Source: an uncultured Desulfobulbaceae bacterium (GTDB lineage: Bacteria; Desulfobacterota; Desulfobulbia; Desulfobulbales; Desulfobulbaceae). Taken from it: 29,364 nt of DNA. The notes below the pieces were generated by a model that worked only from the letters and a program-made list of their open reading frames with translations, did no database searches and was not told the origin of the DNA. Positions 12,430 to 26,397 of this stretch are shown here, piece by piece; position 1 is the first letter of the stretch, and each line of letters begins with the position of its first letter. A program made the position numbers and the translations under genes. The stretch is from NCBI GenBank assembly GCA_947260045.1, contig CAMYOP010000001.1, positions 1 to 29,364 on the forward strand. Direction: 5' to 3'.

Positions 12430-13437
12430 TTATAAACCATTATTTTTTTTGGTCCTCAGGCATTCGATGAGTTGGTCGAGGCCATCCGATGTAGATACTT
12501 CAGGATGATAGTTGAGAATATTTTTCGCTTTTTCAATACTAAAAAAGTGAGATTTAGCTAATTGTTCAGCGACAAACCGAGTCATTTTTGGTTCATTATT
12601 TATTTGAAAAAGGCTATAAATTATTTCTAAAAAGGATCCGACCAAAAAGGCTGCTCGAAATGAAATTTTCCTTTGAACTTGCGGAATATCTAAGGCTATA
12701 AACAGCGAGTTTATCCATGCCCACAGAGAGACAGGTTCCCCCTGGGAGATAAAAAAAGCTTCACCAGCTGCTGAGCCAGTGCTCTCCAGATTACGGGCAG
12801 CAAGTATATGGGCACTAACCACATTATCAATATAAGAAATATCAACCAGATTTTTACCATCACCTACAATGCGCAAACTCCTCTCACGGCCCCGTGCGAG
12901 TAACCTGGGAATGAGATTTGTATCACCCGGCCCCCAGACCAGATGAGGCCGAAGCGCTGTTGTTTTAAGTGCATCTGAATTGGCTTCAAGGACCAATTTT
13001 TCAGCCATTATTTTCGTTTTCGCATAATGACAGAGCACTTTATCTGCATACGGTAATGTTTCATCCGAGCCAGAAATATCACCTCTATTAAAAACAACGC
13101 TTGGTGTACTGGTATAGACCAGTGACCTGATGCCATTTTTCTTGCATGCACTTACAACATTTTTAGTTCCAATATAATTAACGCGATAATAGGAGTTATA
13201 ACTTCCCCAAACACCTGCTTTAGCCGCAACGTGAAAAACCAGGTCATGTCCGGCAAAAGCATCAAGTAAAAACTCTCTATCACAAAGGTCGCCAACAAGA
13301 GAATTTGCTCCAATTTCAATTGCTGCCGGATATTTATTTCTGCCAACAACGGTGGTCTTAATCCCTTGACGAATAAGCTCTTTTGTAAGAGCGAGACCGA
13401 TAAAACCTCCTCCTCCCGTCACAAGTGCCTTTTTCAT
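12430..13437 (-). CDS. oleD: OleD-like 2-alkyl-3-oxoalkanoate reductase (extended SDR, 3-beta-HSD/epimerase family), 335 aa
   Basis: Rossmann motif ALVTGGGGFIG, FHVAAKAGVWG, YTSTPSVV, catalytic YAKTK, LRPHLVWGPGD. Start moved to ATG 13437 behind a GGAGAGG RBS. Directly follows oleABC. Confidence 0.85.
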   Translation of the reverse strand: MKKALVTGGGGFIGLALTKELIRQGIKTTVVGRNKYPAAIEIGANSLVGDLCDREFLLDAFAGHDLVFHVAAKAGVWGSYNSYYRVNYIGTKNVVSACKKNGIRSLVYTSTPSVVFNRGDISGSDETLPYADKVLCHYAKTKIMAEKLVLEANSDALKTTALRPHLVWGPGDTNLIPRLLARGRERSLRIVGDGKNLVDISYIDNVVSAHILAARNLESTGSAAGEAFFISQGEPVSLWAWINSLFIALDIPQVQRKISFRAAFLVGSFLEIIYSLFQINNEPKMTRFVAEQLAKSHFFSIEKAKNILNYHPEVSTSDGLDQLIECLRTKKNNGL

Positions 13438-13474
13438 GTGCAGTAATACCTCTCCCAGAGTATCTCTTTTATCC

Positions 13475-15097
13475 TTATCCGTTGAGTTTTTCTTCCGCCC
13501 AAACAGCGATTTTTTCTCTGAATATTTTGGCGTTATGCCTGATATCAACTGGAAACGAGGGATGAATCAAAAATGTTTCAATCATACAAGTGAGTTCGCT
13601 CGACTGCGCAATACTTAGTAATTGCGCAAATAATTTCTCCTGATTTTTCACCTCTTGTTTTAACTCAACCACAAGAACTGGTTTCTTCTCGGGACCTTTG
13701 CCAACACCAACCATGGCAGAGCGAAACACATCAGGATGATTATTAAAAAGAGCCTCACAGGGGATTGTATACATCACCCCATTGTGAGTAAAAACTCGGT
13801 GTGCTTTACGCCCACAAAACCATAATTTTCCAGCATCGTCGAAATACCCCATATCACCCATCCTGTGCCAAAACTCTTTCCCTGCTGTAATTTTCGCAAG
13901 GCTTGTTTCGTCAGGATTATTATCATATGCTTTGGTTACCACAGGTCCCTTGACGACAATTTCTCCAATCTCACCAGGGCTACATTCACAAGCATCCTGC
14001 CATTTTTCAATTTCAGCTTCGACAGGTTGAATGACACGAATATCTATCCCAGGCAAGGGACTACCCACACATGTCCCTCCACCTTTACAGGTTATGGCCC
14101 AGGTGTTATTAACAATTTCAGTGCCGGAAATAGAAGAGATAGGCAAACTTTCAGTCGCGCCATAAGGTGTGAAGATCTCTCCATCGGGTGACATACACTT
14201 TTTTACCCGTTCAATAAGTTCACCTGACACAGGTGCTCCTGCCATCAAAATTTTACGCAGAGGCAAAACAATATTATGCTCCAAACAATAATTGGAGACA
14301 ACGTTCCAGATTGCAGGAGAGCCGAAAGAATAGGTTACAGCCTGATCTTGCAGAGTCCTTATAAATTTGGGAGGGTCAACCTGTGCTGGCCTGGTTGGAT
14401 CCATATCCGGTATAACAGCCTTGACACCTAAGGCTGTTGAAAACAGAGCAAAAAGAGGAAAACAAGGTTGATCAACGTCTCCTGCCCCTATGTTGTAATG
14501 ATCGCGAATAAGCTGAAGTTGGGCATGAAAAACACCATGGGTGTATTGCACACCTTTGGGAGGACCAGTGGATCCTGTTGTAAAAATTACAGCAGCAAGG
14601 TCATCAGCATTGGCAAAGCGTGGCTGAATTTTATTGAGAGAAACATCAAAGGTAGCCGCATACAGTACTTTTCCTAAAATTCCAAAGCCAAATCCAACAC
14701 AAAATCGTTTTTTCACAGTTAGAAAAGATTTGGAAAAAATCCATGAAAAAAGAAGTGCCTTGGAGATGCCTATAAGGACATCAGGTTTAACGGAACCAAT
14801 ACACCGTAGCAGATTTTTATACCCCATACCCGGATCAATTAGAATAACTGTCGCCCCAAGGTGAAAGAGAGCAAAGGTCAGGCTGACAAATTCCAGAGAG
14901 GGACGGACCATCAGCATAACCCGCATTCCAGGCCGCACTCCTCCCTGACCAAGGGTGATGGCATAACCACCACTACTATCTCGAAGTTCTCGAAACGTCA
15001 TGGTTTTATAGCCCTTACCTTTGGTTACAACAAGTGCTGCCTGCTCAGGAAAACGAGCAGAAACTTCATCTAAGGCATTAGCGATATTACAATTCAT
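13475..15097 (-). CDS. oleC: OleC-like beta-lactone synthetase (ANL adenylate-forming family)
   Basis: LIDPGMG, IFTTGSTGPPKGV, TPYGATE, WHRMGDMG, CGRKAHRV and the OleC-type C-terminus PVDIRHNAKIFREK. Confidence 0.87.
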   Translation of the reverse strand: MNCNIANALDEVSARFPEQAALVVTKGKGYKTMTFRELRDSSGGYAITLGQGGVRPGMRVMLMVRPSLEFVSLTFALFHLGATVILIDPGMGYKNLLRCIGSVKPDVLIGISKALLFSWIFSKSFLTVKKRFCVGFGFGILGKVLYAATFDVSLNKIQPRFANADDLAAVIFTTGSTGPPKGVQYTHGVFHAQLQLIRDHYNIGAGDVDQPCFPLFALFSTALGVKAVIPDMDPTRPAQVDPPKFIRTLQDQAVTYSFGSPAIWNVVSNYCLEHNIVLPLRKILMAGAPVSGELIERVKKCMSPDGEIFTPYGATESLPISSISGTEIVNNTWAITCKGGGTCVGSPLPGIDIRVIQPVEAEIEKWQDACECSPGEIGEIVVKGPVVTKAYDNNPDETSLAKITAGKEFWHRMGDMGYFDDAGKLWFCGRKAHRVFTHNGVMYTIPCEALFNNHPDVFRSAMVGVGKGPEKKPVLVVELKQEVKNQEKLFAQLLSIAQSSELTCMIETFLIHPSFPVDIRHNAKIFREKIAVWAEEKLNG

Positions 15098-15121: not shown

Positions 15122-15997
15122 TCAGGTTGATATTTCTTTTTCTAAAAAAGCAGAAACAAGCTGGAGAACCTCTCCCCTTGAGTCTTCCAGGATATAATGG
15201 CCGGAATCGGGAAAATAATGGCAATGAGCGTGTGGAAAGCGCTGCTGCCACTCTTCATAAAAATGATCGTTAAAACAAAAATCCCGTCCTCCCCAGCAGA
15301 TCAGCATGGGTTTTTCCTTTAAAGCTCCAAGCTCCGTTTCAACTCGAAGCAATTCCTGCCAGGATGGATGATTCTCACTCAGTGGAATGTCCTGAACAAA
15401 GCGAAAGACAGCGACCCTGTTATGCCAATTGTCATAGGGGAAAAGAAATCCCTTTTTCACAGCTGAGGTCATTTTTTTATGAACAGCCATAGAGGTAGCA
15501 GCACCAGCAAAACCGTTAAGACCACGCACGAGAAATTCTCCCAAAAATGGCCATCGACAGATACCAATTCGAAAAGGTATACGCTGGGACCTGAACGCTG
15601 CCGTATTGAGAACCACTACACCTGCAACTTTATCAGGATTTCTGCCCGCCCATCCCATACCAATTGCCCCGCCCCAGTCATGGACCATAAGGACGCAACA
15701 TTTGATCTCAAGCCTTGTAAGCAAAGCATCCAGGTTTTTGATATGGTTTTGTAAGGTATACACATAGGATTGCGGTTTTTCAGACAGGCCGCAGCCGATA
15801 TGATCCGGGGCAATTACTCTATACCCAGCGCGCAACGATGTGATTGCATGACGATACATATAAGACCAGGTCGGATTGCCATGTACCATGACAATGGGCA
15901 AACCAGCCCCTTCATCAACATAGGACAATCGATGTCCATCAATTTCTATCTCTTTGGGTTTAAATGGATATTCTGCGAGCTGCAATGAATTGCTCAT
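15122..15997 (-). CDS. oleB: OleB-like beta-lactone decarboxylase (haloalkane-dehalogenase-like alpha/beta hydrolase)
   Basis: HGNPTWS oxyanion motif, nucleophile elbow HDWGG, catalytic His in HYILED. The ATG at 15997 overlaps the oleA stop (TAATG). Confidence 0.85.
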   Translation of the reverse strand: MSNSLQLAEYPFKPKEIEIDGHRLSYVDEGAGLPIVMVHGNPTWSYMYRHAITSLRAGYRVIAPDHIGCGLSEKPQSYVYTLQNHIKNLDALLTRLEIKCCVLMVHDWGGAIGMGWAGRNPDKVAGVVVLNTAAFRSQRIPFRIGICRWPFLGEFLVRGLNGFAGAATSMAVHKKMTSAVKKGFLFPYDNWHNRVAVFRFVQDIPLSENHPSWQELLRVETELGALKEKPMLICWGGRDFCFNDHFYEEWQQRFPHAHCHYFPDSGHYILEDSRGEVLQLVSAFLEKEIST

Positions 15998-17031
15998 TAC
16001 CATTCAACGCCAAGCATCAGGGAATTAATACCGCTACCTATGCCAAGCAGCGCTGCCCTTTGCCCCTGAACAAGCTGCCCCTGTTCTATGCCAAGAGCCA
16101 TTGTTATAGGTGCTGACACCGAACCAATATTCCCAAGGATTGGCAAGGTTTCAAAATTGCGTTCAGGATCAAGTCCCAGAGTGTTGAAAAGATGCTGTGC
16201 ATGAACACGCCCTACCTGATGGCAAAAAAATCGATCAATTGATTCTTTCTGCCAGCCAAGAGTGCTTAAAAAATCAGTCCAGCAGTCACTGGCGGTTTCA
16301 ATACCTTTTTCAAGCAGCAACTCTGAATCCGTGGACATAAGTGTACCCTGTTCCGCATTCAGTCCACCCTGACAAAGTTCATTATGATCAGTGTTAGCCC
16401 GACAAGTTCCACCGACAAGATAATGACCAGTATCATTTTGACGACGACTTTCAAGCACCAAACCAACAGCTCCAGACCCGATAGTCAATGAGGCAAAAGC
16501 CGGCTTTATATTTTTTCTTGTCAAGCTCTGGTTTGATAAGAGATGGTTCAGGGTTGACTCAACGAGGCCTTCTGCAGTTTCGCCAGCAACCAATAATCCT
16601 TTTTTTACCTGCCCAAGCTCAATCATGCTGGCAAGCAGAATCATACCGTTTAAAAAACCCAAACAGGCATTAGACAGATCAAAAAGATGACAGCTTTTGG
16701 ATAAGCCTAAGGAGCGGTGGACAAAGGCTGCAGTTGCCGGTTCCATCATATCCCGTGAGACTGAAGTAAACATGAGGCATTCTATATCGTCAGGTGCAGC
16801 ATTGGCAGCTTCAAGCGCTTTTGCTCCTGCTTTTGCAGCAACTGTACTTGGCCGTGTTCCTTTATCCCAGAACCGGCGTTCACGAATGCCGCTCATCAAT
16901 TCAAGCCTGCCCTCAGGCAGTTTCAATTTTTGGTACACTGGTGCAAGCCTCTTTTCCAAATCATCGGAAGAGACAATATGTGGCGGGAGTTCATAGCCGA
17001 ACGGATGAAGGCATACCTGAGAAAATCGCAT
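15997..17031 (-). CDS. oleA: OleA-like acyl-CoA:acyl-CoA alkyltransferase (thiolase fold, head-to-head Claisen condensation)
   Basis: Has the OleA general-base Glu motif (MEPATA) together with NACLGFLNG (Cys), HQVG (His) and GNIG (Asn); followed by oleB, oleC and oleD in canonical order. Confidence 0.88.
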   Translation of the reverse strand: MRFSQVCLHPFGYELPPHIVSSDDLEKRLAPVYQKLKLPEGRLELMSGIRERRFWDKGTRPSTVAAKAGAKALEAANAAPDDIECLMFTSVSRDMMEPATAAFVHRSLGLSKSCHLFDLSNACLGFLNGMILLASMIELGQVKKGLLVAGETAEGLVESTLNHLLSNQSLTRKNIKPAFASLTIGSGAVGLVLESRRQNDTGHYLVGGTCRANTDHNELCQGGLNAEQGTLMSTDSELLLEKGIETASDCWTDFLSTLGWQKESIDRFFCHQVGRVHAQHLFNTLGLDPERNFETLPILGNIGSVSAPITMALGIEQGQLVQGQRAALLGIGSGINSLMLGVEW

Positions 17032-17072: not shown

Positions 17073-17873
17073 TCAGGAAACTGCTTTACGAACGATATCT
17101 GTGTCAAAATAATTTATAGCCATACCACCATCAACAACAATGCATTGGCTGTTTATTCCTGAGGATCGTGGTGAAAGTAAAAACGCTGCGGTATTGGCAG
17201 CTTCACTGGTTTGTAATGCTTTTTTTCGTAAAATGACTTTTTCGGCAAAAAGATAACTATCAACGTATCCAGGAATACCTGCCGAAGCTGATGTTTTCAA
17301 AAGACCAGGACAAACAGCATTGAAACGCACCTGAGAAAAAGACGAAAAACTCTTGGCAAGAAAACAAAGTGACGATTCAAGAGCTGCTTTCACCGGTGCC
17401 ATATATCCATAATTTTCTGCAGCCATTTTTGTCGTTGAGATGGAGATGGTGACAACCGATGCGTCCTCTTCCAACAACTCTCTAAAATGGTTACTGATTG
17501 CCAGAAGTGAATAGCACGATATATCGATTGCCTGGAGAAAATCCTTTTTCAAGGTTTGATGGAATGGTTTCATTCCTTCTGAATAATTGGCAAAGGCAAT
17601 GGAATGAACCAAACCATGGATCTTGTCTTTTGAATGTTCAGCTATCTCATCTCGAACCCGAATAATATTTTCTTCTTCTTCAACATCACAGATGAAAACA
17701 GCAGAGCCTGGAAATAATTTTCGGGCGGTTTTTGCTCTTTCCTCAGTGCGAACAACATGAATGATTTCCGCTCCATTTTCGGCAAGAGTTCGGCCAATGG
17801 CACTAGCGACCGATTTTCTATTGGCCAGGCCAAAAATAACAATTTTTTTATTCTCAAGATTTAAAAAGCTCAC
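17073..17873 (-). CDS. fabI: Enoyl-ACP reductase, FabI-like (divergent)
   Basis: [23 protein letters not shown], catalytic Y-x2-M-x3-K ([13 protein letters not shown]), [14 protein letters not shown]; GTG start. Confidence 0.82.
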
Positions 17874-17939: not shown

Positions 17940-18395
17940 TCAATCTATCTTACTAAGCATACAGGCAAAGTCCACCTGGATTACCACCTTTTTAGCCAAA
18001 TGGACAGATCCCTTTAAAAACCAGGCACTTCCAAGACGTTCTTTTAACTTTGCTGTCACAAGAATCGTATCGCCTGGATGCACCTGGCGTTTGAATTTTG
18101 CATTCTGGATTCTGGTGAGCACTGGCACAGATTGGGCCATCTCATCCCTGCCAGTTTCCTGCCGAAATTTTTCAGCGATTAAAAGTGCACCTGCCTGGAA
18201 AACGGCTTCACATAAGAGCACCCCAGGCATAAGAGGGTGTCCAGGGTAATGCCCTGTAAACAGCTCAAGATTTTTGGAGATATATTTTTCTGCTTGAATG
18301 GAATCTGCTGTTAAGTCAAGGACCTTGTCAATCCAGAGAAAAGGAGAGCGATGTGGAATACGCTTTTCAACAAAAGATTCGCTCTGGAGATCCAT
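17940..18395 (-). CDS. fabZ: 3-hydroxyacyl-ACP dehydratase, FabZ-like
   Basis: IPHRSPFLWID and FTGHYPGHPLMPGVLLCEAVFQ carry the His/Glu dyad; the ATG overlaps the fabG stop (TAATG). Confidence 0.88.
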   Translation of the reverse strand: MDLQSESFVEKRIPHRSPFLWIDKVLDLTADSIQAEKYISKNLELFTGHYPGHPLMPGVLLCEAVFQAGALLIAEKFRQETGRDEMAQSVPVLTRIQNAKFKRQVHPGDTILVTAKLKERLGSAWFLKGSVHLAKKVVIQVDFACMLSKID

Positions 18396-19135
18396 TACAA
18401 ACCACCAGTTATTTCCAGCACTGAACCAGTAATATAGGCACTACGTGAACCTGCCAGAAAAAGCACTGCATCTGCTACTTCTTCCGGAGCACCAAAGCGT
18501 TTGGCTGGAACGAGCTTCTTATACTCTTTCATCTGACTTTCCGTTAAGTCTGCAATAAAATCAGTTGCAATAAAACCTGGGGAAACGCAATTAACCGTAA
18601 TCTTTCGCTTTGCTGTTTCTTTAGCCAGAGACTTCATCATTCCGACCTGACCGGCCTTTGATGCCGCATAGTTTGCTTGTCCGGCAAAGCCAAGATGCCC
18701 CATGGGAGACGTGACAAAAATGATACGCCCGTATCGCTTTTTCAACATAAGATTTACGCCAAACTTTGCCATGGTGTAACTTCCTGTCAGATTTACATCG
18801 ATAACACGGCGCCAATCCTCTTCCTTGAGCATGGCAAGAACACCATCTCTGCGTATACCCGCATTACTGACCAGAATATCTATGACATCAAACTCTTCTT
18901 CTATAAGTTGAAAGAGTGCTGAAACCTCAGAATAATTTGAAACATCACATTTATGAAGTTGCAGACGTTGGCCCGCTTCTGTACAGTCTTGCTGCAATGC
19001 TGCCGCAGCGGCAACGTTTCCTGCATAAATGCCGATTACAGTTGCCCCCTTTTCAAGAAATGCCTCAGTGACCGCTCGTCCAATACCTCTTGTTGCGCCG
19101 GTAACGACAACAACCTGACCTGTAAAATCTTCCAT
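18395..19135 (-). CDS. fabG: 3-oxoacyl-ACP reductase, FabG-like
   Basis: VTGATRGIG, NAGIRRD, catalytic YAASK, VNCVSPGFIAT; ATG 19135 preferred over TTG 19141. Confidence 0.9.
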   Translation of the reverse strand: MEDFTGQVVVVTGATRGIGRAVTEAFLEKGATVIGIYAGNVAAAAALQQDCTEAGQRLQLHKCDVSNYSEVSALFQLIEEEFDVIDILVSNAGIRRDGVLAMLKEEDWRRVIDVNLTGSYTMAKFGVNLMLKKRYGRIIFVTSPMGHLGFAGQANYAASKAGQVGMMKSLAKETAKRKITVNCVSPGFIATDFIADLTESQMKEYKKLVPAKRFGAPEEVADAVLFLAGSRSAYITGSVLEITGGL

Positions 19136-19150
19136 TAACAATTCAATCTC

Positions 19151-20557
19151 TCAGCTTCTTAAATAACCATCAACATCATTTGCCACAATAACACCATAGT
19201 TAATGGCACCTAGCCAACCACTCATGATAATCCCCACCGATCCAACATGAAAAAGACCGGGCAGCTCTTTATAGATGGACCTGGAAATTTCAAGACCCTC
19301 AAACTTCGTACCAAAGGAAGTACCTTTAGTATGCAGGGTATAACGGTTAAAGGTCCGCGGAGTCGCTGCCTCAACCCAATCAACTTTTTCCCTGATGCCT
19401 GGAATATAGCGCTCAAGATCATTATAGGAGCGTTCAATCATATCGACTTTAGCCTTTTCATACTCTGTATCATCAAGCCTCATCCAGTCATCATAATTAC
19501 CATTCATAGAAGCAACGACAGTATAATCAGGTTTCTCTGGCCGCGTTTTCGGATAATAAATAGAAAAAGTTCGACTCTTGGTCTGCATATCAAGCATTTC
19601 TTCTGAAGAGAACTGTTTTGCCGTGGAGGTAAAAAGCAAATCTCCAACATCATCAAAACGCTCACCTTGTTTGACCCCAAAATACACCTGGCAGCTTGAA
19701 TTATTTACTTTTACAGCATCAAAACGTTCGAGGTAATCAGGGCTGAAGTGTTCACGGCCAGCAAGATTTGTTACCGTATTTGTTATACCACTGTTAGAAA
19801 CCACAGACTTGGCATGAATTTTTTTATTGCCGACGATTACCCCGGTAATTCTATCTTTTTCGATGATAAGCCTATTCACTCTGGCTTTAGTGCAAATAGT
19901 GACCCCATTGGCGACAAGCTCGTCTTGCATCATGTGGATGAGTTTATCAGTGCCACCTTCGAAAGTATAAACGCCACGATTCATAAAATTCGAAAAAACT
20001 ATACCATAGGTAATAGCCGGCTCATCAAGGGTTGAACCATTAGCGTATGTTATTGGTTCAAGCAAGAGACGATGAACATCACTGCGCCCAGGGAAAAATT
20101 TTTCAAAAAGCTCCCTTGTGGTCATGGATTGATCATCATAAAAATTCATTTTGTTGACAGTTGCAAAAAATTCGTCAACAACACTCATCTCTATTTGAAA
20201 TTTCTGGTTAAGAATTTTGACAAAGTCTTCCTTATCAAAAGAGGTTTTCAAGGAAAACTGGGGATTATCAAAGACAATATTATCCAATTGGACAATGGAA
20301 TCTTTAATGGCCTTATTCCAATATTTTTTGCAGGTTTTAACCATTCCATAGGGAAAACCATGTAAGGAAACATCAAAAACATGTCCTTTGCGTTTAAACC
20401 AGGTGGCCAGGCCACCGAGTTTTGTATGGTGCTCAAGTAACAAAATACTGTGCCCGGCTCTTGCCAAGCGGTTGGCGCAGGTGAGACCACCGAGACCTGA
20501 ACCGATCACAATGGTATCATATGAACTTTTTAGATTTTTTAACGGTGTAAAGGACAT
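19151..20557 (-). CDS. Phytoene dehydrogenase-like (CrtI/COG1233 family) FAD-dependent oxidoreductase, copy 2; function unknown
   Basis: N-terminal dinucleotide fold YDTIVIGSGLGGL...LLEHHTKLGG...FDVSLHG. C-terminal ATPRTFNRYT...GTSFG and LFHVGSVGIIMSGWLGAINYG. Confidence 0.85.
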   Translation of the reverse strand: MSFTPLKNLKSSYDTIVIGSGLGGLTCANRLARAGHSILLLEHHTKLGGLATWFKRKGHVFDVSLHGFPYGMVKTCKKYWNKAIKDSIVQLDNIVFDNPQFSLKTSFDKEDFVKILNQKFQIEMSVVDEFFATVNKMNFYDDQSMTTRELFEKFFPGRSDVHRLLLEPITYANGSTLDEPAITYGIVFSNFMNRGVYTFEGGTDKLIHMMQDELVANGVTICTKARVNRLIIEKDRITGVIVGNKKIHAKSVVSNSGITNTVTNLAGREHFSPDYLERFDAVKVNNSSCQVYFGVKQGERFDDVGDLLFTSTAKQFSSEEMLDMQTKSRTFSIYYPKTRPEKPDYTVVASMNGNYDDWMRLDDTEYEKAKVDMIERSYNDLERYIPGIREKVDWVEAATPRTFNRYTLHTKGTSFGTKFEGLEISRSIYKELPGLFHVGSVGIIMSGWLGAINYGVIVANDVDGYLRS

Positions 20558-20699
20558 AGTGTAATGGTCCAATAATAAGAATACGTTCTTTCATGGACTC
20601 TGGAGTGTGCCAAGCAAAGAACTTTTGGGAAAAGTTAATAGTTATCTAATAGCAGAAAAATTATATATTTCTACCAAGTTAATCTGACTTCTGCAAGAC

Positions 20700-22091
20700 T
20701 CATTGCAGTAACTGTTGATTGACGATGGTAACACCGCTCAGCATTGAACCAATGATACCGAGATAGCCTTGGTCAGTTCCTGCAATAAACAAATTTTGCC
20801 AGGGTGTGCATCCATCTTTAATCTTGAGTGGACTGCCATAGACTGCTCCTTTAGCCTTGGCAGTATAGCGCTCTATGGTAGTCGGGGTGAAACTGTCCTG
20901 AAAAACAGCACCTTTCCAGTAATTTCCAATTATTTTCCCCACAGTCTGCTGTGATTTTGTGTACGATTCTGTTTTCAACTGCTCATACTGTGTGGAACCA
21001 GCCTGACGCCATATTTCATAATTGGCGGGATTGGTGACCCTTACCTGAAAAACATCTCCTTCTTCCAAAGCTTGAAAGTTTTCAGGAAAACAAATGACTC
21101 CCCAGGAATCATCAATAGCGGTGTCTGGGCAGCTATAGTGAAACTCGTCTTTGTTATTATAAAAAATGATTGTTGAATCGGATCGGACCGATTGTCTTTG
21201 GGACGAGGGCAAAATTGAAATTGACTCCATAAAACTCATTTTTCCGCTATATGCTTCAAGCTCAAGGGGCCAATCACTTAAATGGGCAGTACCAGGAATA
21301 CCTACCGTGGACAAAACAGCCCGGCAGGATATTTCCTCTCCGCTCTCCAACAAGACTCCCTGTATACGATCTTTATGGGTGACAATTTTTGCTACTTTGG
21401 TCTGAAAACGTATTTCCCCGTCATATTTTTTATACTGCTCTACAAGCATATCGAGAAAATCTCGAATAGTACCCTCTGGTCGAAAAAATCCTTCCAGAAA
21501 AATTGAGCGGAACATTATAACAAACTGACCAAAATCCATATCATGCTCTTCGCTATTGCCATACACCATGAGTGGCAGCAATAACATATCCTCAAGAACT
21601 TTATTACGAAGAGTAATAGATAATATTTCGCGGGTTGACTGCCACTTACTCAAGGCAAAGGGGTCATGCTCCTGAACTTTCATGGCTAAATTACGGAAAT
21701 GATCCAGGGAACCAGGAAACTCTCTTTCTATTTCGCTTTCAAGGAAAGAAAAGTCATTGTTAAACCTGAGTCCATGTGTTTGAAATTTGATTTCAGAACC
21801 GATCTGTTCGTGGGTCTGAAATTTTTTTCGGGAAAGTTTAAGCTGCCTGAAAAGTCTGTTGAGAGGTGCATGCCGATTTGAGGGCTCAGCAAAATTGGTC
21901 ATGGCATGCAGGCCGGTCTCAAGTATATGCCCCTGGCGATAATAAAATGAATTGAGTCCGCCTGGAAAATGGTGCTGCTCAAGTATGAGAACTTTTTGAC
22001 CAAAGCGGGCCGTTCGTATACCTGCAGCAAGTCCGGAGAGGCCTCCGCCAATTATTATAAGCTGATAATCTTCCAGACTTTTCACCTCCAA
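20700..22091 (-). CDS. Phytoene dehydrogenase-like (CrtI/COG1233 family) FAD-dependent oxidoreductase, copy 1; function unknown
   Basis: IIIGGGLSGLAAG...LILEQHHFPGG...LETGLHA. C-terminal FTPTTIERYT...GAVYG and LFIAGTDQGYLGIIGSMLSG. Start codon uncertain (TTG 22091 or GTG 22085). Confidence 0.85.
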   Translation of the reverse strand: MEVKSLEDYQLIIIGGGLSGLAAGIRTARFGQKVLILEQHHFPGGLNSFYYRQGHILETGLHAMTNFAEPSNRHAPLNRLFRQLKLSRKKFQTHEQIGSEIKFQTHGLRFNNDFSFLESEIEREFPGSLDHFRNLAMKVQEHDPFALSKWQSTREILSITLRNKVLEDMLLLPLMVYGNSEEHDMDFGQFVIMFRSIFLEGFFRPEGTIRDFLDMLVEQYKKYDGEIRFQTKVAKIVTHKDRIQGVLLESGEEISCRAVLSTVGIPGTAHLSDWPLELEAYSGKMSFMESISILPSSQRQSVRSDSTIIFYNNKDEFHYSCPDTAIDDSWGVICFPENFQALEEGDVFQVRVTNPANYEIWRQAGSTQYEQLKTESYTKSQQTVGKIIGNYWKGAVFQDSFTPTTIERYTAKAKGAVYGSPLKIKDGCTPWQNLFIAGTDQGYLGIIGSMLSGVTIVNQQLLQ

Positions 22092-22167: not shown

Positions 22168-22428
22168 TCAGCTAACAGCAACGCTCTGAAGTTTAGGTTC
22201 AAGATAATTTACACAACTATTTAAGGTAGCAAGCTCTGGATATTCTTCTTCAGGAATTGTAATCTGGTAGCGCTTACGCAGCTCCATCACTATATCAAGA
22301 AAATCCATGGAATCCAGATCAAGCTGATCACGCAAAGGCGCATCGGCATCCAGACCATCGAACTCCGCTTCTTCATCAATATCTTGAATGATTTCTATAA
22401 TAATATCCCTGATTTCGTCCCGGGTCAT
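22168..22428 (-). CDS. Acyl carrier protein dedicated to the cluster
   Basis: 86 aa, strongly acidic, phosphopantetheine site LDLDSMDFLDIVM; AGAGGA RBS. Confidence 0.92.
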   Translation of the reverse strand: MTRDEIRDIIIEIIQDIDEEAEFDGLDADAPLRDQLDLDSMDFLDIVMELRKRYQITIPEEEYPELATLNSCVNYLEPKLQSVAVS

Positions 22429-22514: not shown

Positions 22515-23765
22515 TTAGTAGGCATCAAACCTTTTCACAATTACGACTGAATTAATTCCAACCATGCCGAAGGAGTTATTCAAAATTGTGTCGACCTTGT
22601 CAAGTTGTTTCGGTTCATTTGCGACAATTCCGGGTAATTCACAGGCAGGATCCAAGCTATCCAGATTAATAGTTGGATGAACAATATTATCCTCAAATGA
22701 CGACAGATTGCCGGCCAGTTCCAGGACTCCGGCCGCTCCCATGGCATGTCCAATCGTTGATTTGGTATTATTTACATACACGTTGGACGCATCCTGAAAA
22801 ACTTCACGAATCGCTTTACATTCCTCTATGTCACCCTGGCGTGTCCCTGTGGCATGAGTATTTATAATTGTTATATCATTGGCTGTCATTCCAGCTCTAG
22901 CAAGGGCAATTTTCATACATTCTGCCTGGCGTGGACCATATGGTAAAACAAAATCACGGGCATCAGAATTCATGGCATAGCCTGCTATTTCACCATAAAT
23001 TTTAGCCCCCCGTGCCAGTGCTTTATCCAGGCGTTCAAGAGTGAAGACGCAACCACCCTCAGAAATTACAATACCATTTCTATCCAGGTCAAAAGGTCGG
23101 CTGGCCTTGGTTGGATCTTTGTGTTCAGCTAACGCTCCCTGGGCCCTAAAACTTGCAAAAATACCAAAAGAATCAACACACTCTGAAATACCGCCGCATA
23201 GGGCCAGATCCACCTCTTCCAAAAGGAGCATCTGAACACCCTGAATTAAAGCAGCATTTCCAGCGGCACAGGCTGCCCCAATTGAATAATGGGGGCCGGT
23301 AATCCCAAGATTCATGGTAATTTCGCCCGCTGGATTATTCAAGACAGTTCGCGGGTTATGGTGATGAGTCCAGTAATCTACATTATAATCAAAACAGCTG
23401 ATATTATAGACTTCATTTTCCGTTTCAACGGTTCCATGCTCTGTCAGGCCTATATACACACCCGTAGAAGACTTATCATATTGACTGAAATCTATACCAC
23501 TGTCGGCTAATGCTTCATTGGCACAATAGACGCTGATGCAGCCGGCCCGGGTTCCCCGTTTATTTTCTTTCTTTTTTCGATATTTTGTTTCGGCAAATGA
23601 ACAGATTCCGGCAGGGGCTGTATCCATATAACGGAGGTCAATTGTTGAAATACCACTTGTTCCTGCAAGTAATTTTTGTCTGAATTCAGTTAAATTACTT
23701 GCATTAGGGGACGCCAGCCCGACCCCGGTAATGACGATTCTTTTGTTTTCCGCCTTTGTCTGCAT
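22515..23765 (-). CDS. fabF: Beta-ketoacyl-ACP synthase II (FabF/FabB family), divergent
   Basis: IVITGVG, Cys-His-His triad (GAACAAG, NTHATGT, KSTIGHAMGAAG), EGGCVFTLE, C-terminal NNSFGMVG; ATG 23765 preferred over TTG 23771. Confidence 0.88.
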   Translation of the reverse strand: MQTKAENKRIVITGVGLASPNASNLTEFRQKLLAGTSGISTIDLRYMDTAPAGICSFAETKYRKKKENKRGTRAGCISVYCANEALADSGIDFSQYDKSSTGVYIGLTEHGTVETENEVYNISCFDYNVDYWTHHHNPRTVLNNPAGEITMNLGITGPHYSIGAACAAGNAALIQGVQMLLLEEVDLALCGGISECVDSFGIFASFRAQGALAEHKDPTKASRPFDLDRNGIVISEGGCVFTLERLDKALARGAKIYGEIAGYAMNSDARDFVLPYGPRQAECMKIALARAGMTANDITIINTHATGTRQGDIEECKAIREVFQDASNVYVNNTKSTIGHAMGAAGVLELAGNLSSFEDNIVHPTINLDSLDPACELPGIVANEPKQLDKVDTILNNSFGMVGINSVVIVKRFDAY

Positions 23766-23780
23766 GCTCAATTTTTCTCT

Positions 23781-23807: not shown

Positions 23808-26397
<2,590 letters not shown>

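Follow-up and report, generated by a model that had tools for sequence, protein, structure and literature searches.

Desulfotalea psychrophila, a member of the Desulfobulbales, makes the hydrocarbons C31:8 and C31:9, has no pfa genes and carries the tandem genes DP2405 and DP2406 in a type II fatty acid synthesis (FAS II) cluster (PMC2649909). Rattray et al. 2009 proposed an anaerobic pathway for polyunsaturated fatty acids (PUFA) leading to these hydrocarbons and named DP2405/DP2406 in it (PMC2649909). Thus, the anaerobic-PUFA hypothesis for such tandem pairs is not new (Rattray 2009, PMC2649909), and the source of C31:8 and C31:9 in strict anaerobes that do not have a Pfa synthase has been a standing question since 2009. 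Enzymes of the same type are also part of the unsolved ladderane question. DP2405/DP2406, which are in tandem, and kuste3336 and kuste3607 of Kuenenia are amine-oxidase/CrtI-like FAD proteins encoded together with fabF, acp, fabG and fabZ (Rattray 2009, PMC2649909; Javidpour 2016, PMC4790861). The two Kuenenia genes could not replace crtI in E. coli, and no lycopene was made (PMC4790861). In Geobacter bemidjiensis, which produces C31:9, pfaDABC and oleABCD are arranged in tandem (PMC4882568).

Here, we analyzed a stretch of 29,364 nucleotides (the window) from an uncultured Desulfobulbaceae bacterium, a member of the Desulfobulbales related to sulfate reducers, in which two tandem amine-oxidase-family genes lie in a fabF-acp-fabG-fabZ cluster. 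The pair resembles the DP and kuste genes as these are described in the published work, and differs from them in that the module in which it is embedded is followed, head to tail, by a full set of oleABCD genes. Together, these genes make up a co-directional unit of 11 genes, KS-ACP-PD1-PD2-FabG-FabZ-FabI-OleABCD, as follows:

22515..23771, minus strand: KS, elongating ketosynthase of the FabF-like type, part of the dedicated FAS II module (N and C ketoacyl-synt domains, Pfam)
22168..22428, minus strand: dedicated acyl carrier protein (ACP; Pfam PP-binding; DSM serine motif, residue 39)
20700..22085, minus strand: PD1, 461 aa, upstream and faster-evolving member of the pair, FAD protein of the CrtISO/RetSat/CrtI fold
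19151..20557, minus strand: PD2, 468 aa, downstream and strongly conserved member of the pair, FAD protein of the CrtISO/RetSat/CrtI fold
18395..19141, minus strand: FabG-type 3-oxoacyl-ACP reductase (Pfam adh_short_C2; TIGR01830, 280 bits)
17940..18395, minus strand: FabZ-type 3-hydroxyacyl-ACP dehydratase (Pfam FabA; NF000582 FabZ, 114.7 bits; cut-off, 113)
17073..17873, minus strand: FabI-like enoyl-ACP reductase (Tyr155-x6-Lys162)
15997..17031, minus strand: OleA, head-to-head condensing thiolase (NF006720, 441 bits; cut-off, 285)
15122..16003, minus strand: OleB, alpha/beta hydrolase of the beta-lactone decarboxylase type (Pfam Abhydrolase_1, haloalkane-dehalogenase-like matches)
13475..15097, minus strand: OleC, AMP ligase of the olefin beta-lactone synthetase type (NF006754, 659 bits; cut-off, 478)
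12430..13548, minus strand: OleD, 3beta-HSD-type reductase (Pfam 3Beta_HSD, E 2.8e-55)

The initial annotation of this DNA had described a divergent tandem pair of ~465-aa FAD proteins between acp and fabG. The open reading frames, Pfam matches, pairwise alignment and motifs all confirm this, and the two are full-length paralogues. On the minus strand, the open frames as called span 20700-22091 (PD1) and 19151-20572 (PD2); homologues indicate that the true starts are probably at 22085 and 20557, respectively. Both proteins match Pfam Amino_oxidase and NAD_binding_8, and the top-scoring NCBIfam models for the pair are CrtD, CrtISO and crtI_fam. PD1 and PD2 align end to end with 23% identity (E 7e-20), their profile-profile comparison gives a probability of 100%, and they have in common the motifs GxGxxG...E in the N-terminus and TPxTxxRYT...G in the C-terminus. 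In PDB sequence searches, matches to either protein span the N-terminal FAD motif only. The AF2 models (pLDDT 92 for PD1 and 91 for PD2) show the three-domain CrtI-like fold together with the FAD-binding Rossmann motif. The closest PDB structure to both is 4REP, with 4DGK and 3KA7 as further best matches (Foldseek E-values for 4REP and 4DGK, 1e-20 to 1e-27). CrtI/CrtD (4DGK, 4REP) thus represent the same fold and the best solved matches, but at 15-18% identity and TM-scores of 0.56-0.75. Among reviewed proteins with predicted structures, the nearest Swiss-Prot entries are CrtISO and RetSat for PD1 and RetSat and CrtISO for PD2 (up to 24% identity to PD2), with TM-scores of 0.80-0.85 that are slightly above those of CrtI/CrtN desaturases, so that the lean toward CrtISO/RetSat over CrtI depends on small TM-score differences. 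CrtISO and RetSat are FAD enzymes that isomerize or saturate the double bonds of polyene chains and do not introduce new ones. Their substrates are isoprenoids, whereas PD1 and PD2 are ~120-150 residues shorter and have a fatty acid context. A prediction of a PD1/PD2 complex from custom alignments scored 0.00 and speaks neither for nor against binding.

Because homologues carry database names such as “phytoene dehydrogenase” and “15-cis-phytoene desaturase”, and because the Pfam and NCBIfam matches are to the same families, PD1 and PD2 could be taken for genuine carotenoid desaturases or isomerases. This possibility is effectively refuted by several lines of evidence. Scores against the NCBIfam carotenoid equivalogs are 4- to 10-fold under the cut-offs throughout: for TIGR02734 (crtI_fam), PD2 reaches 88.4 bits and PD1 50.1 against a cut-off of 238.1, and for TIGR02730 (CrtISO), 105.9 and 64.9 bits against an equivalog cut-off of 586.9. 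No crtB, crtE or cyclase gene is present within the window, and SQS_PSY (PF00494; phytoene/squalene synthase) was found in 0/31 genomes of the family, i.e. the 78%-complete source genome and 30 relatives, with positive controls detected in 8/14 cases; PD2 is present in 32/32 genomes of the family. In the phylogenetic tree, the PD1 and PD2 clades are separate from CrtI-like outgroups, the nearest of which are themselves under the crtI_fam cut-off, and the lack of crtI complementation by the Kuenenia homologues (PMC4790861) points the same way. PD1 and PD2 are not carotenoid enzymes, and scores and tree alike bear out the view that they fall outside the true carotenoid desaturases.

The neighbors of the pair are those of a dedicated FAS II. 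The KS matches TIGR03150 with 308 bits, under the cut-off of this model, has the Cys168-His306-His342 triad, and is 64-83% identical to syntenic counterparts in other phyla. With the ACP as query, this protein was the sole ACP match in the genome, and its synteny is kept across phyla. FabZ has the His/Glu motif and is the most constant neighbor of PD2, and FabI is the sole FabI homologue detected in the 78%-complete genome. Housekeeping FabH, FabG, FabF and FabZ are encoded on other contigs (the second FabG, on contig C163, is 46% identical to that of the module) and, therefore, the module represents a second fab set. Downstream, the four ole genes are in the order oleABCD, with OleA and OleC matching their family models; the olefin beta-lactone synthetase models (Xanthomonas and Shewanella equivalogs) score OleC at 507-523 bits, under their cut-offs. 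Promoter and terminator scans within the cluster performed no better than on shuffled sequence.

The order KS-ACP-PD1-PD2-FabG-FabZ-FabI is kept in Desulfobulbales, Dehalococcoidia, Nitrospinota, Nitrospirota and some Planctomycetota. PD1 immediately precedes PD2 at 25 of the 27 Thermodesulfobacteriota loci with room for PD1, and at all loci in Chloroflexota (6/6), Nitrospinota (7/7) and Nitrospirota (1/1). Across five phyla, PD2 sequences share 57-79% identity. In the tree, PD1 and PD2 fall into a clade each (support for the PD1 clade, 100%), the branching within one clade matches that within the other, and the pair is co-inherited. Names of the sources of homologues include Desulfobulbaceae, Electrothrix and Desulfocapsa. 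Searches with PD1 and PD2 gave no match labelled as anammox, and a further search that started from a deep PD2 relative yielded names from Planctomycetota, Lentisphaerota, Kiritimatiellota and Nitrospinota, likewise with no anammox label. Frames of 852-1048 aa for PD2 in GC-rich Planctomycetota were rejected as fusions and represent open reading through GC-rich DNA. In one metagenomic protein (P0242), a single observation, PD2 is fused to a FabA/FabZ domain. This fusion, like the constancy of FabZ as a neighbor of PD2, supports that PD2 acts on ACP-bound intermediates and, in this respect, agrees with the earlier suggestion that the pair acts on acyl-ACP; the results are compatible with a desaturase, an isomerase or a reductase.

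The oleABCD genes are directly downstream of the module here and in Desulfobulbaceae. Among 201 Desulfobulbales genomes, 134 have PD2 together with OleC, nine PD2 alone, nine OleC alone and 49 neither, i.e. OleC is present in 134/143 PD2-positive genomes; in Planctomycetota, OleC is found in 20/23 PD2-positive vs 22/98 PD2-negative genomes. Because these counts are drawn from related genomes, they overstate independence. Complete genomes of Planctomicrobium encode all three of PD1, PD2 and OleC, at sites that are megabases apart. PD2 occurs without OleC in three genomes (G208, G266, G316) and in the nine, mostly incomplete, Desulfobulbales MAGs, and 22 Planctomycetota genomes have OleC without PD2. 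In one Desulfobulbales family (f6), PD2 and OleC are each found in 0/32 genomes. Thus, the expectation that homologues would co-occur with fab and ole genes is upheld by cross-phylum synteny as well as genome counts.

The co-occurrence with ole would also be seen if the pair desaturated the finished C31 olefin released by OleABCD, a long hydrocarbon resembling phytoene. Free hydrocarbons are the substrates of CrtI-family enzymes, and C31:9 has 1 + 8 double bonds, for which two four-step desaturases would suffice. We nevertheless regard this as very improbable. The genes for the pair are flanked by those for ACP and FabG-FabZ rather than by ole genes, and their association with KS/ACP/FabZ persists where ole is not linked to them. 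In P0242, PD2 is joined to a FabA domain. Moreover, a conjugated nonaene would be pigmented, whereas the C31:9 described is all-cis and skipped. Conversely, the module might have nothing to do with the Ole substrates and make another lipid, e.g. an unusual 16:1 isomer or anaerobic monounsaturated fatty acids in general, with the Ole precursors coming from ordinary FAS or PfaA-like PKS genes. Pieces of a PfaA-like type I PKS (KS-AT-ACP-KR-DH) are indeed present in the source genome (contigs C141, C202, C47 and C110) and could supply unsaturated chains instead; moreover, one 16:1 isomer of D. psychrophila is isotopically like the polyenes (PMC2649909), and many Planctomycetota have Ole but not PD2. 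Against this stand the tandem arrangement of the module with oleABCD, the joint absence of PD2 and OleC from whole Desulfobulbales families such as the one above, in which unsaturated membrane lipids are still needed, and the near-absence of PfaD from the Desulfobulbales, and we consider a role separate from Ole improbable. The best PfaA-like (TIGR02813) match in the source genome reaches 247 bits vs a cut-off of 1010, and PfaD (TIGR02814) was detected in 1/201 Desulfobulbales genomes and not in the source genome; canonical Pfa was, therefore, rejected as the precursor source for this order.

Based on these data, we suggest a model in which PD1 and PD2 are in-line, acyl-ACP-modifying flavoenzymes of a PUFA-making type II synthase that feeds OleABCD. 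On balance, we favor this model as a whole, and the proposed pathway role of the pair, taken by itself, appears reasonably likely. In this model, PD1 and PD2 would be ancient FAD-dependent paralogues with the CrtI/CrtISO/RetSat fold that departed from carotenoid metabolism and became fixed parts of the dedicated synthase KS-ACP-PD1-PD2-FabG-FabZ-FabI, in which they would modify ACP-bound intermediates during chain building. Their substrate may be the enoyl- or dienoyl-ACP delivered by FabZ. The product of the module would be a polyunsaturated C16 acyl chain (16:4/16:3-like), two of which would be condensed head to head by the adjoining OleABCD to give the C31:8/C31:9 polyenes. As a consequence of supplying polyunsaturated chains, the module would stand where the Pfa synthase stands in Shewanella and Geobacter. 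As proposed here for the module, Pfa in Shewanella and G. bemidjiensis provides an O2-independent polyunsaturated supply from genes in tandem upstream of ole, and the end product, C31:9, is presumed to be identical. By contrast, the module consists of discrete type II enzymes and two flavoenzymes, whereas Pfa is a multidomain type I synthase whose DH domains are FabA-like.

For the chemistry, the preferred version would have two redox-neutral or reductive steps, which a methylene-interrupted polyene would need every three cycles. Candidates are a trans-2 to cis-3 shift together with a trans-2 to cis-2 flip or, alternatively, one of these two together with selective 2,4-dienoyl reduction. Flavoenzymes that move or create acyl double bonds independently of O2 have precedents. 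Helicobacter FabX, which has a different fold and uses FMN, carries out flavin-dependent O2-free unsaturation of acyl-ACP, and the FAD-dependent linoleate isomerase of Propionibacterium acnes acts on free fatty acids; the latter is absent from the top 50 structural matches to PD1 and PD2. CrtI can use quinones as electron acceptors. Along these lines, PD1 and PD2 might instead be true dehydrogenating desaturases that further desaturate an unsaturated acyl-ACP, with menaquinone or a different anaerobic acceptor taking up the electrons, as in the proposal of Rattray 2009. The CrtI-like fold, the carotenoid desaturase 4REP as best PDB match and CrtD as top NCBIfam match are consistent with such desaturases, and the PD2/OleC counts and the synteny fit them as well as they fit our model. 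However, desaturation of the CrtI type extends conjugation, while bacterial C31:9 is methylene-interrupted (PMC4882568). Also, tailoring after synthesis would make a private KS/ACP/KR/DH/ER set unnecessary, the conserved module has no gene for an acceptor or for electron transfer, and the nearest reviewed structures are the non-desaturases CrtISO and RetSat. For these reasons, we consider dehydrogenating desaturases unlikely. Our preference for isomerase/saturase chemistry over CrtI-type dehydrogenation is, in turn, a tentative one.

Equally tentatively, we speculate that the seven-gene module represents a third route to PUFA, present in at least five phyla, namely a type II synthase in which two CrtISO/RetSat-like flavoenzymes take the place of the FabA-like domains of Pfa and which operates free of O2 and with no net electron acceptor. 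Here, one enzyme would catalyze the trans-2 to cis-3 isomerization and the other either the trans-2 to cis-2 isomerization or the selective reduction of 2,4-dienoyl-ACP. To the earlier hypothesis for such pairs, the survey adds a seven-gene core over five phyla, the paired inheritance of PD1 and PD2, and a presence that tracks ole even where the genes are unlinked. The 11-gene unit from KS to OleABCD is compact and could be expressed as it stands. If its function is proven, it would bring new enzymology for oxygen-independent polyunsaturation, would have practical relevance for the production of hydrocarbons and PUFA, and would aid in interpreting C31:9 as a sediment biomarker. Finally, one of the PKS pieces in the source genome, on contig C110, is fused to an amine-oxidase domain. 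This domain groups with generic CrtI-like outgroups and not with PD1 or PD2, and the fusion lends loose support to ACP-linked chemistry.

Based on the gene content of the window and comparison with homologous loci, the best-supported reading is that a seven-gene module, encoding KS-ACP-PD1-PD2-FabG-FabZ-FabI, is a private type II synthase of polyunsaturated C16 chains for OleABCD. PD1 and PD2 are tandem phytoene-dehydrogenase-like FAD proteins. The genes from KS to OleD form a compact row, all in the same direction, flanked upstream by alaS and downstream by the operon for the F1Fo ATP synthase.

Genes of the module and of oleABCD in the window
22515-23771, minus strand, FabF-like KS, Cys-His-His triad present
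22168-22428, minus strand, ACP, DSM serine motif
20700-22085, minus strand, PD1, 461 aa, Pfam Amino_oxidase and NAD_binding_8
19151-20557, minus strand, PD2, 468 aa, Pfam Amino_oxidase and NAD_binding_8
18395-19141, minus strand, FabG
17940-18395, minus strand, FabZ, His/Glu motif present
17073-17873, minus strand, FabI-like reductase, Tyr-x6-Lys present
15997-17031, minus strand, OleA
15122-16003, minus strand, OleB
13475-15097, minus strand, OleC
12430-13548, minus strand, OleD

Housekeeping-type FabH, FabG, FabF and FabZ are encoded on other contigs of the same assembly (3.15 Mb, 376 contigs, 78% complete). Thus, the fab genes in the window represent a second, dedicated set. By tblastn, the gene at 17073-17873 is the sole FabI homologue in this 78%-complete genome, and its product may therefore also serve housekeeping fatty-acid synthesis. 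Loci of the Desulfocapsaceae type carry the module without the FabI-like gene.

The initial annotation described a flavoprotein pair between acp and fabG. This pair is real, because both proteins match Amino_oxidase and NAD_binding_8 and align over their whole length (23% identity, E 7e-20; profile-profile probability 100%); the sole correction is that, judged from homologues, translation of each truly begins a few codons after the start of its longest ORF. AlphaFold predicts both structures with confidence (pLDDT 92 for PD1 and 91 for PD2). The closest solved structures are CrtD-like 4REP, archaeal 3KA7 and CrtI 4DGK, with just 15-18% identity. Among reviewed proteins, the nearest by predicted structure are RetSat and CrtISO (TM 0.80-0.85; identity to PD2 up to 24%), which rank narrowly above the CrtI/CrtN desaturases, weakly suggesting that PD1 and PD2 may be closer to the isomerase/saturase branch.

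A carotenoid role, as the best NCBIfam matches of the pair (CrtD, CrtISO and crtI_fam) might imply, is less likely, and we rejected it. These matches score 50-110 bits against cut-offs of 238-587, and the nearest relatives outside the PD2 family (~30% identity) are likewise under the crtI_fam cut-off. Moreover, phytoene/squalene synthase (PF00494) was detected neither in the window's genome nor in 30 other genomes of its family, while control genomes were positive; PD2 is present in all sampled genomes of that family. Finally, Kuenenia homologues were unable to replace crtI (Javidpour et al., PMC4790861). In agreement with the initial annotation, PD1 and PD2 are not carotenoid enzymes.

Canonical Pfa, the type I polyunsaturated fatty acid synthase, was also rejected as an explanation: the PfaA-like match in the window's genome is under the cut-off, PfaD was not found there and it occurs in just 1 of 201 Desulfobulbales genomes. 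The assembly, which lacks PfaD, contains PfaA-like type I PKS pieces on contigs C141 (L015:3-1607; KS), C202 (L013:3-5402; KS-AT-ACP-KR-DH) and C47 (L014:175-3447; KR-DH), all under the PfaA cut-off, and these might supply unsaturated chains instead. A further contig, C110 (L012:1774-8442, minus strand), has a 2223-aa open frame that is truncated at the contig edge and encodes a type I PKS module whose C-terminus is a CrtI-like FAD domain (ACP-KR-DH-(~600-aa unassigned stretch)-Amino_oxidase). This domain is 25-28% identical to PD2 and in the tree groups with generic CrtI-like outgroups, outside PD1 and PD2.

Named homologues of PD1 and PD2 belong to Desulfobulbaceae, Candidatus Electrothrix, Desulfocapsa and related taxa. 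In an exhaustive search, the PD2 family comprised only 175 clusters at E<1e-30, with full-length members at least 36% identical, below which identity falls to ~30%; a genome scan gave at least 591 loci. Identity to PD2 is 67-79% in Desulfobulbales and 57-62% in Dehalococcoidia, Nitrospinota, Nitrospirota and Planctomycetota; a further search also gave names from Lentisphaerota and Kiritimatiellota. The seven-gene order is recurrent among 80 fetched loci, and PD1 lies immediately upstream of PD2 in Thermodesulfobacteriota (25/27 loci with room for PD1), Chloroflexota (6/6), Nitrospinota (7/7) and Nitrospirota (1/1); in Planctomycetota, where the genes are scattered, this holds in only 3/21. In a maximum-likelihood tree, PD1 (100% support) and PD2 (99%) form separate clades with matching internal branching, and thus the duplication is older than the spread and PD1 and PD2 are passed on as a pair. 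PD2 evolves at about half the rate of PD1.

Some loci depart from this arrangement. PD2 stands alone, with no other module gene within 10 kb, in Candidatus Electronema sp. TJ (L021) and in Planctomycetaceae loci L070, L072, L078, L082, L088, L093 and L097. In Dehalococcoidia/Chloroflexota loci L058, L059, L062, L066, L068 and L073, an OleA/FabH-like gene, 43-52% identical to OleA of the window, precedes the module, in some together with a second KS-ACP pair. A search for OleC in a single Chloroflexota genome, which is small and probably incomplete, gave no match.

The steadiest neighbour of PD2 is FabZ. In one single-copy metagenomic protein (P0242, 625 aa; JGI metagenome contig, L017:2209-4086), a PD2-clade domain is fused to a FabA/FabZ hot-dog domain, with a FabI-like and a radical SAM gene downstream. 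A deep PD2 relative (P0252, 36-38% identical) lies in a PD2-FabG-FabZ-FabI locus with oleDCBA ~6 kb away.

As in the window, oleABCD directly follows FabI in Desulfobulbaceae. PD2 and OleC are each present in 143 of 201 sampled Desulfobulbales genomes; by a hand count from two tables, 134 have both, 9 PD2 only, 9 OleC only and 49 neither (odds ratio 81), and five families lack both. In Planctomycetota (n=121), OleC is present in 20/23 PD2-positive versus 22/98 PD2-negative genomes (odds ratio 23). The p-values overstate these associations because related genomes are not independent; the pattern repeats in two phyla. Two complete Planctomicrobium chromosomes carry PD1, PD2 and OleC at sites separated by megabases, and PD2 and OleC are also unlinked in some complete Desulfobulbales genomes. 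An unrelated lipid role of the module is less likely. The syntenic module and these counts bear out the proposed co-occurrence with fab and ole genes, and the overall reading of the pair in the initial annotation was largely right.

The module is one more example of a candidate system that was described in 2009. Desulfotalea psychrophila, of the same order as the window's organism, produces C31:8 and C31:9 hydrocarbons without pfa, and its FAS II clusters, syntenic with Kuenenia clusters, hold the amine-oxidase/phytoene-dehydrogenase-like DP1860, DP2405 and DP2406; a novel anaerobic PUFA pathway was proposed (Rattray et al. 2009, PMC2649909). C31:9 is thought to arise when OleABCD links two chains of 16:4(n-3), and in Geobacter bemidjiensis pfaDABC lies in tandem upstream of oleABCD (PMC4882568; PMC3098273). 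The desaturase step was still called a proposal in a 2026 review (PMC13459092), and our literature search found no published tests of these enzymes on acyl-ACP. New here are the observations that the module is physically joined to oleABCD, that its seven-gene core is conserved across phyla and that the PD1/PD2 paralogues are co-inherited; the analysis also adds counts of co-occurrence and the PD2::FabA-domain fusion, and it excludes the carotenoid and canonical Pfa explanations.

We infer a scheme in which a skipped, all-cis 16:4 chain built two carbons at a time would follow a three-cycle rhythm: full reduction of the 2-enoyl (or 2,4-dienoyl) intermediate, migration of a trans-2 double bond to cis-3, and isomerisation of a trans-2 double bond to cis-2. 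This rhythm would therefore need an enoyl reductase, for which the FabI-like protein would serve, and two further activities on FabZ products, which two always-paired flavoenzymes beside FabZ would fit. It also fits that the superfamily includes isomerising (CrtISO) and saturating (RetSat) members that catalyze no net oxidation. The complete private KS/ACP/KR/DH/ER set and a conserved core without an electron-acceptor gene are likewise easier to reconcile with in-line action than with post-synthetic desaturation. True desaturation by the pair, as Rattray proposed, is a live rival. It is less likely that the pair desaturates the finished olefin.

Upstream of the module, the alaS ORF (23808-25979) aligns to the catalytic-domain profile of class II AlaRS from profile position 159 onwards and is closely preceded by a separate 121-aa ORF (26023-26388) on the same strand; the region 23808-26388 resembles an alaS gene that is split or carries a frameshift.
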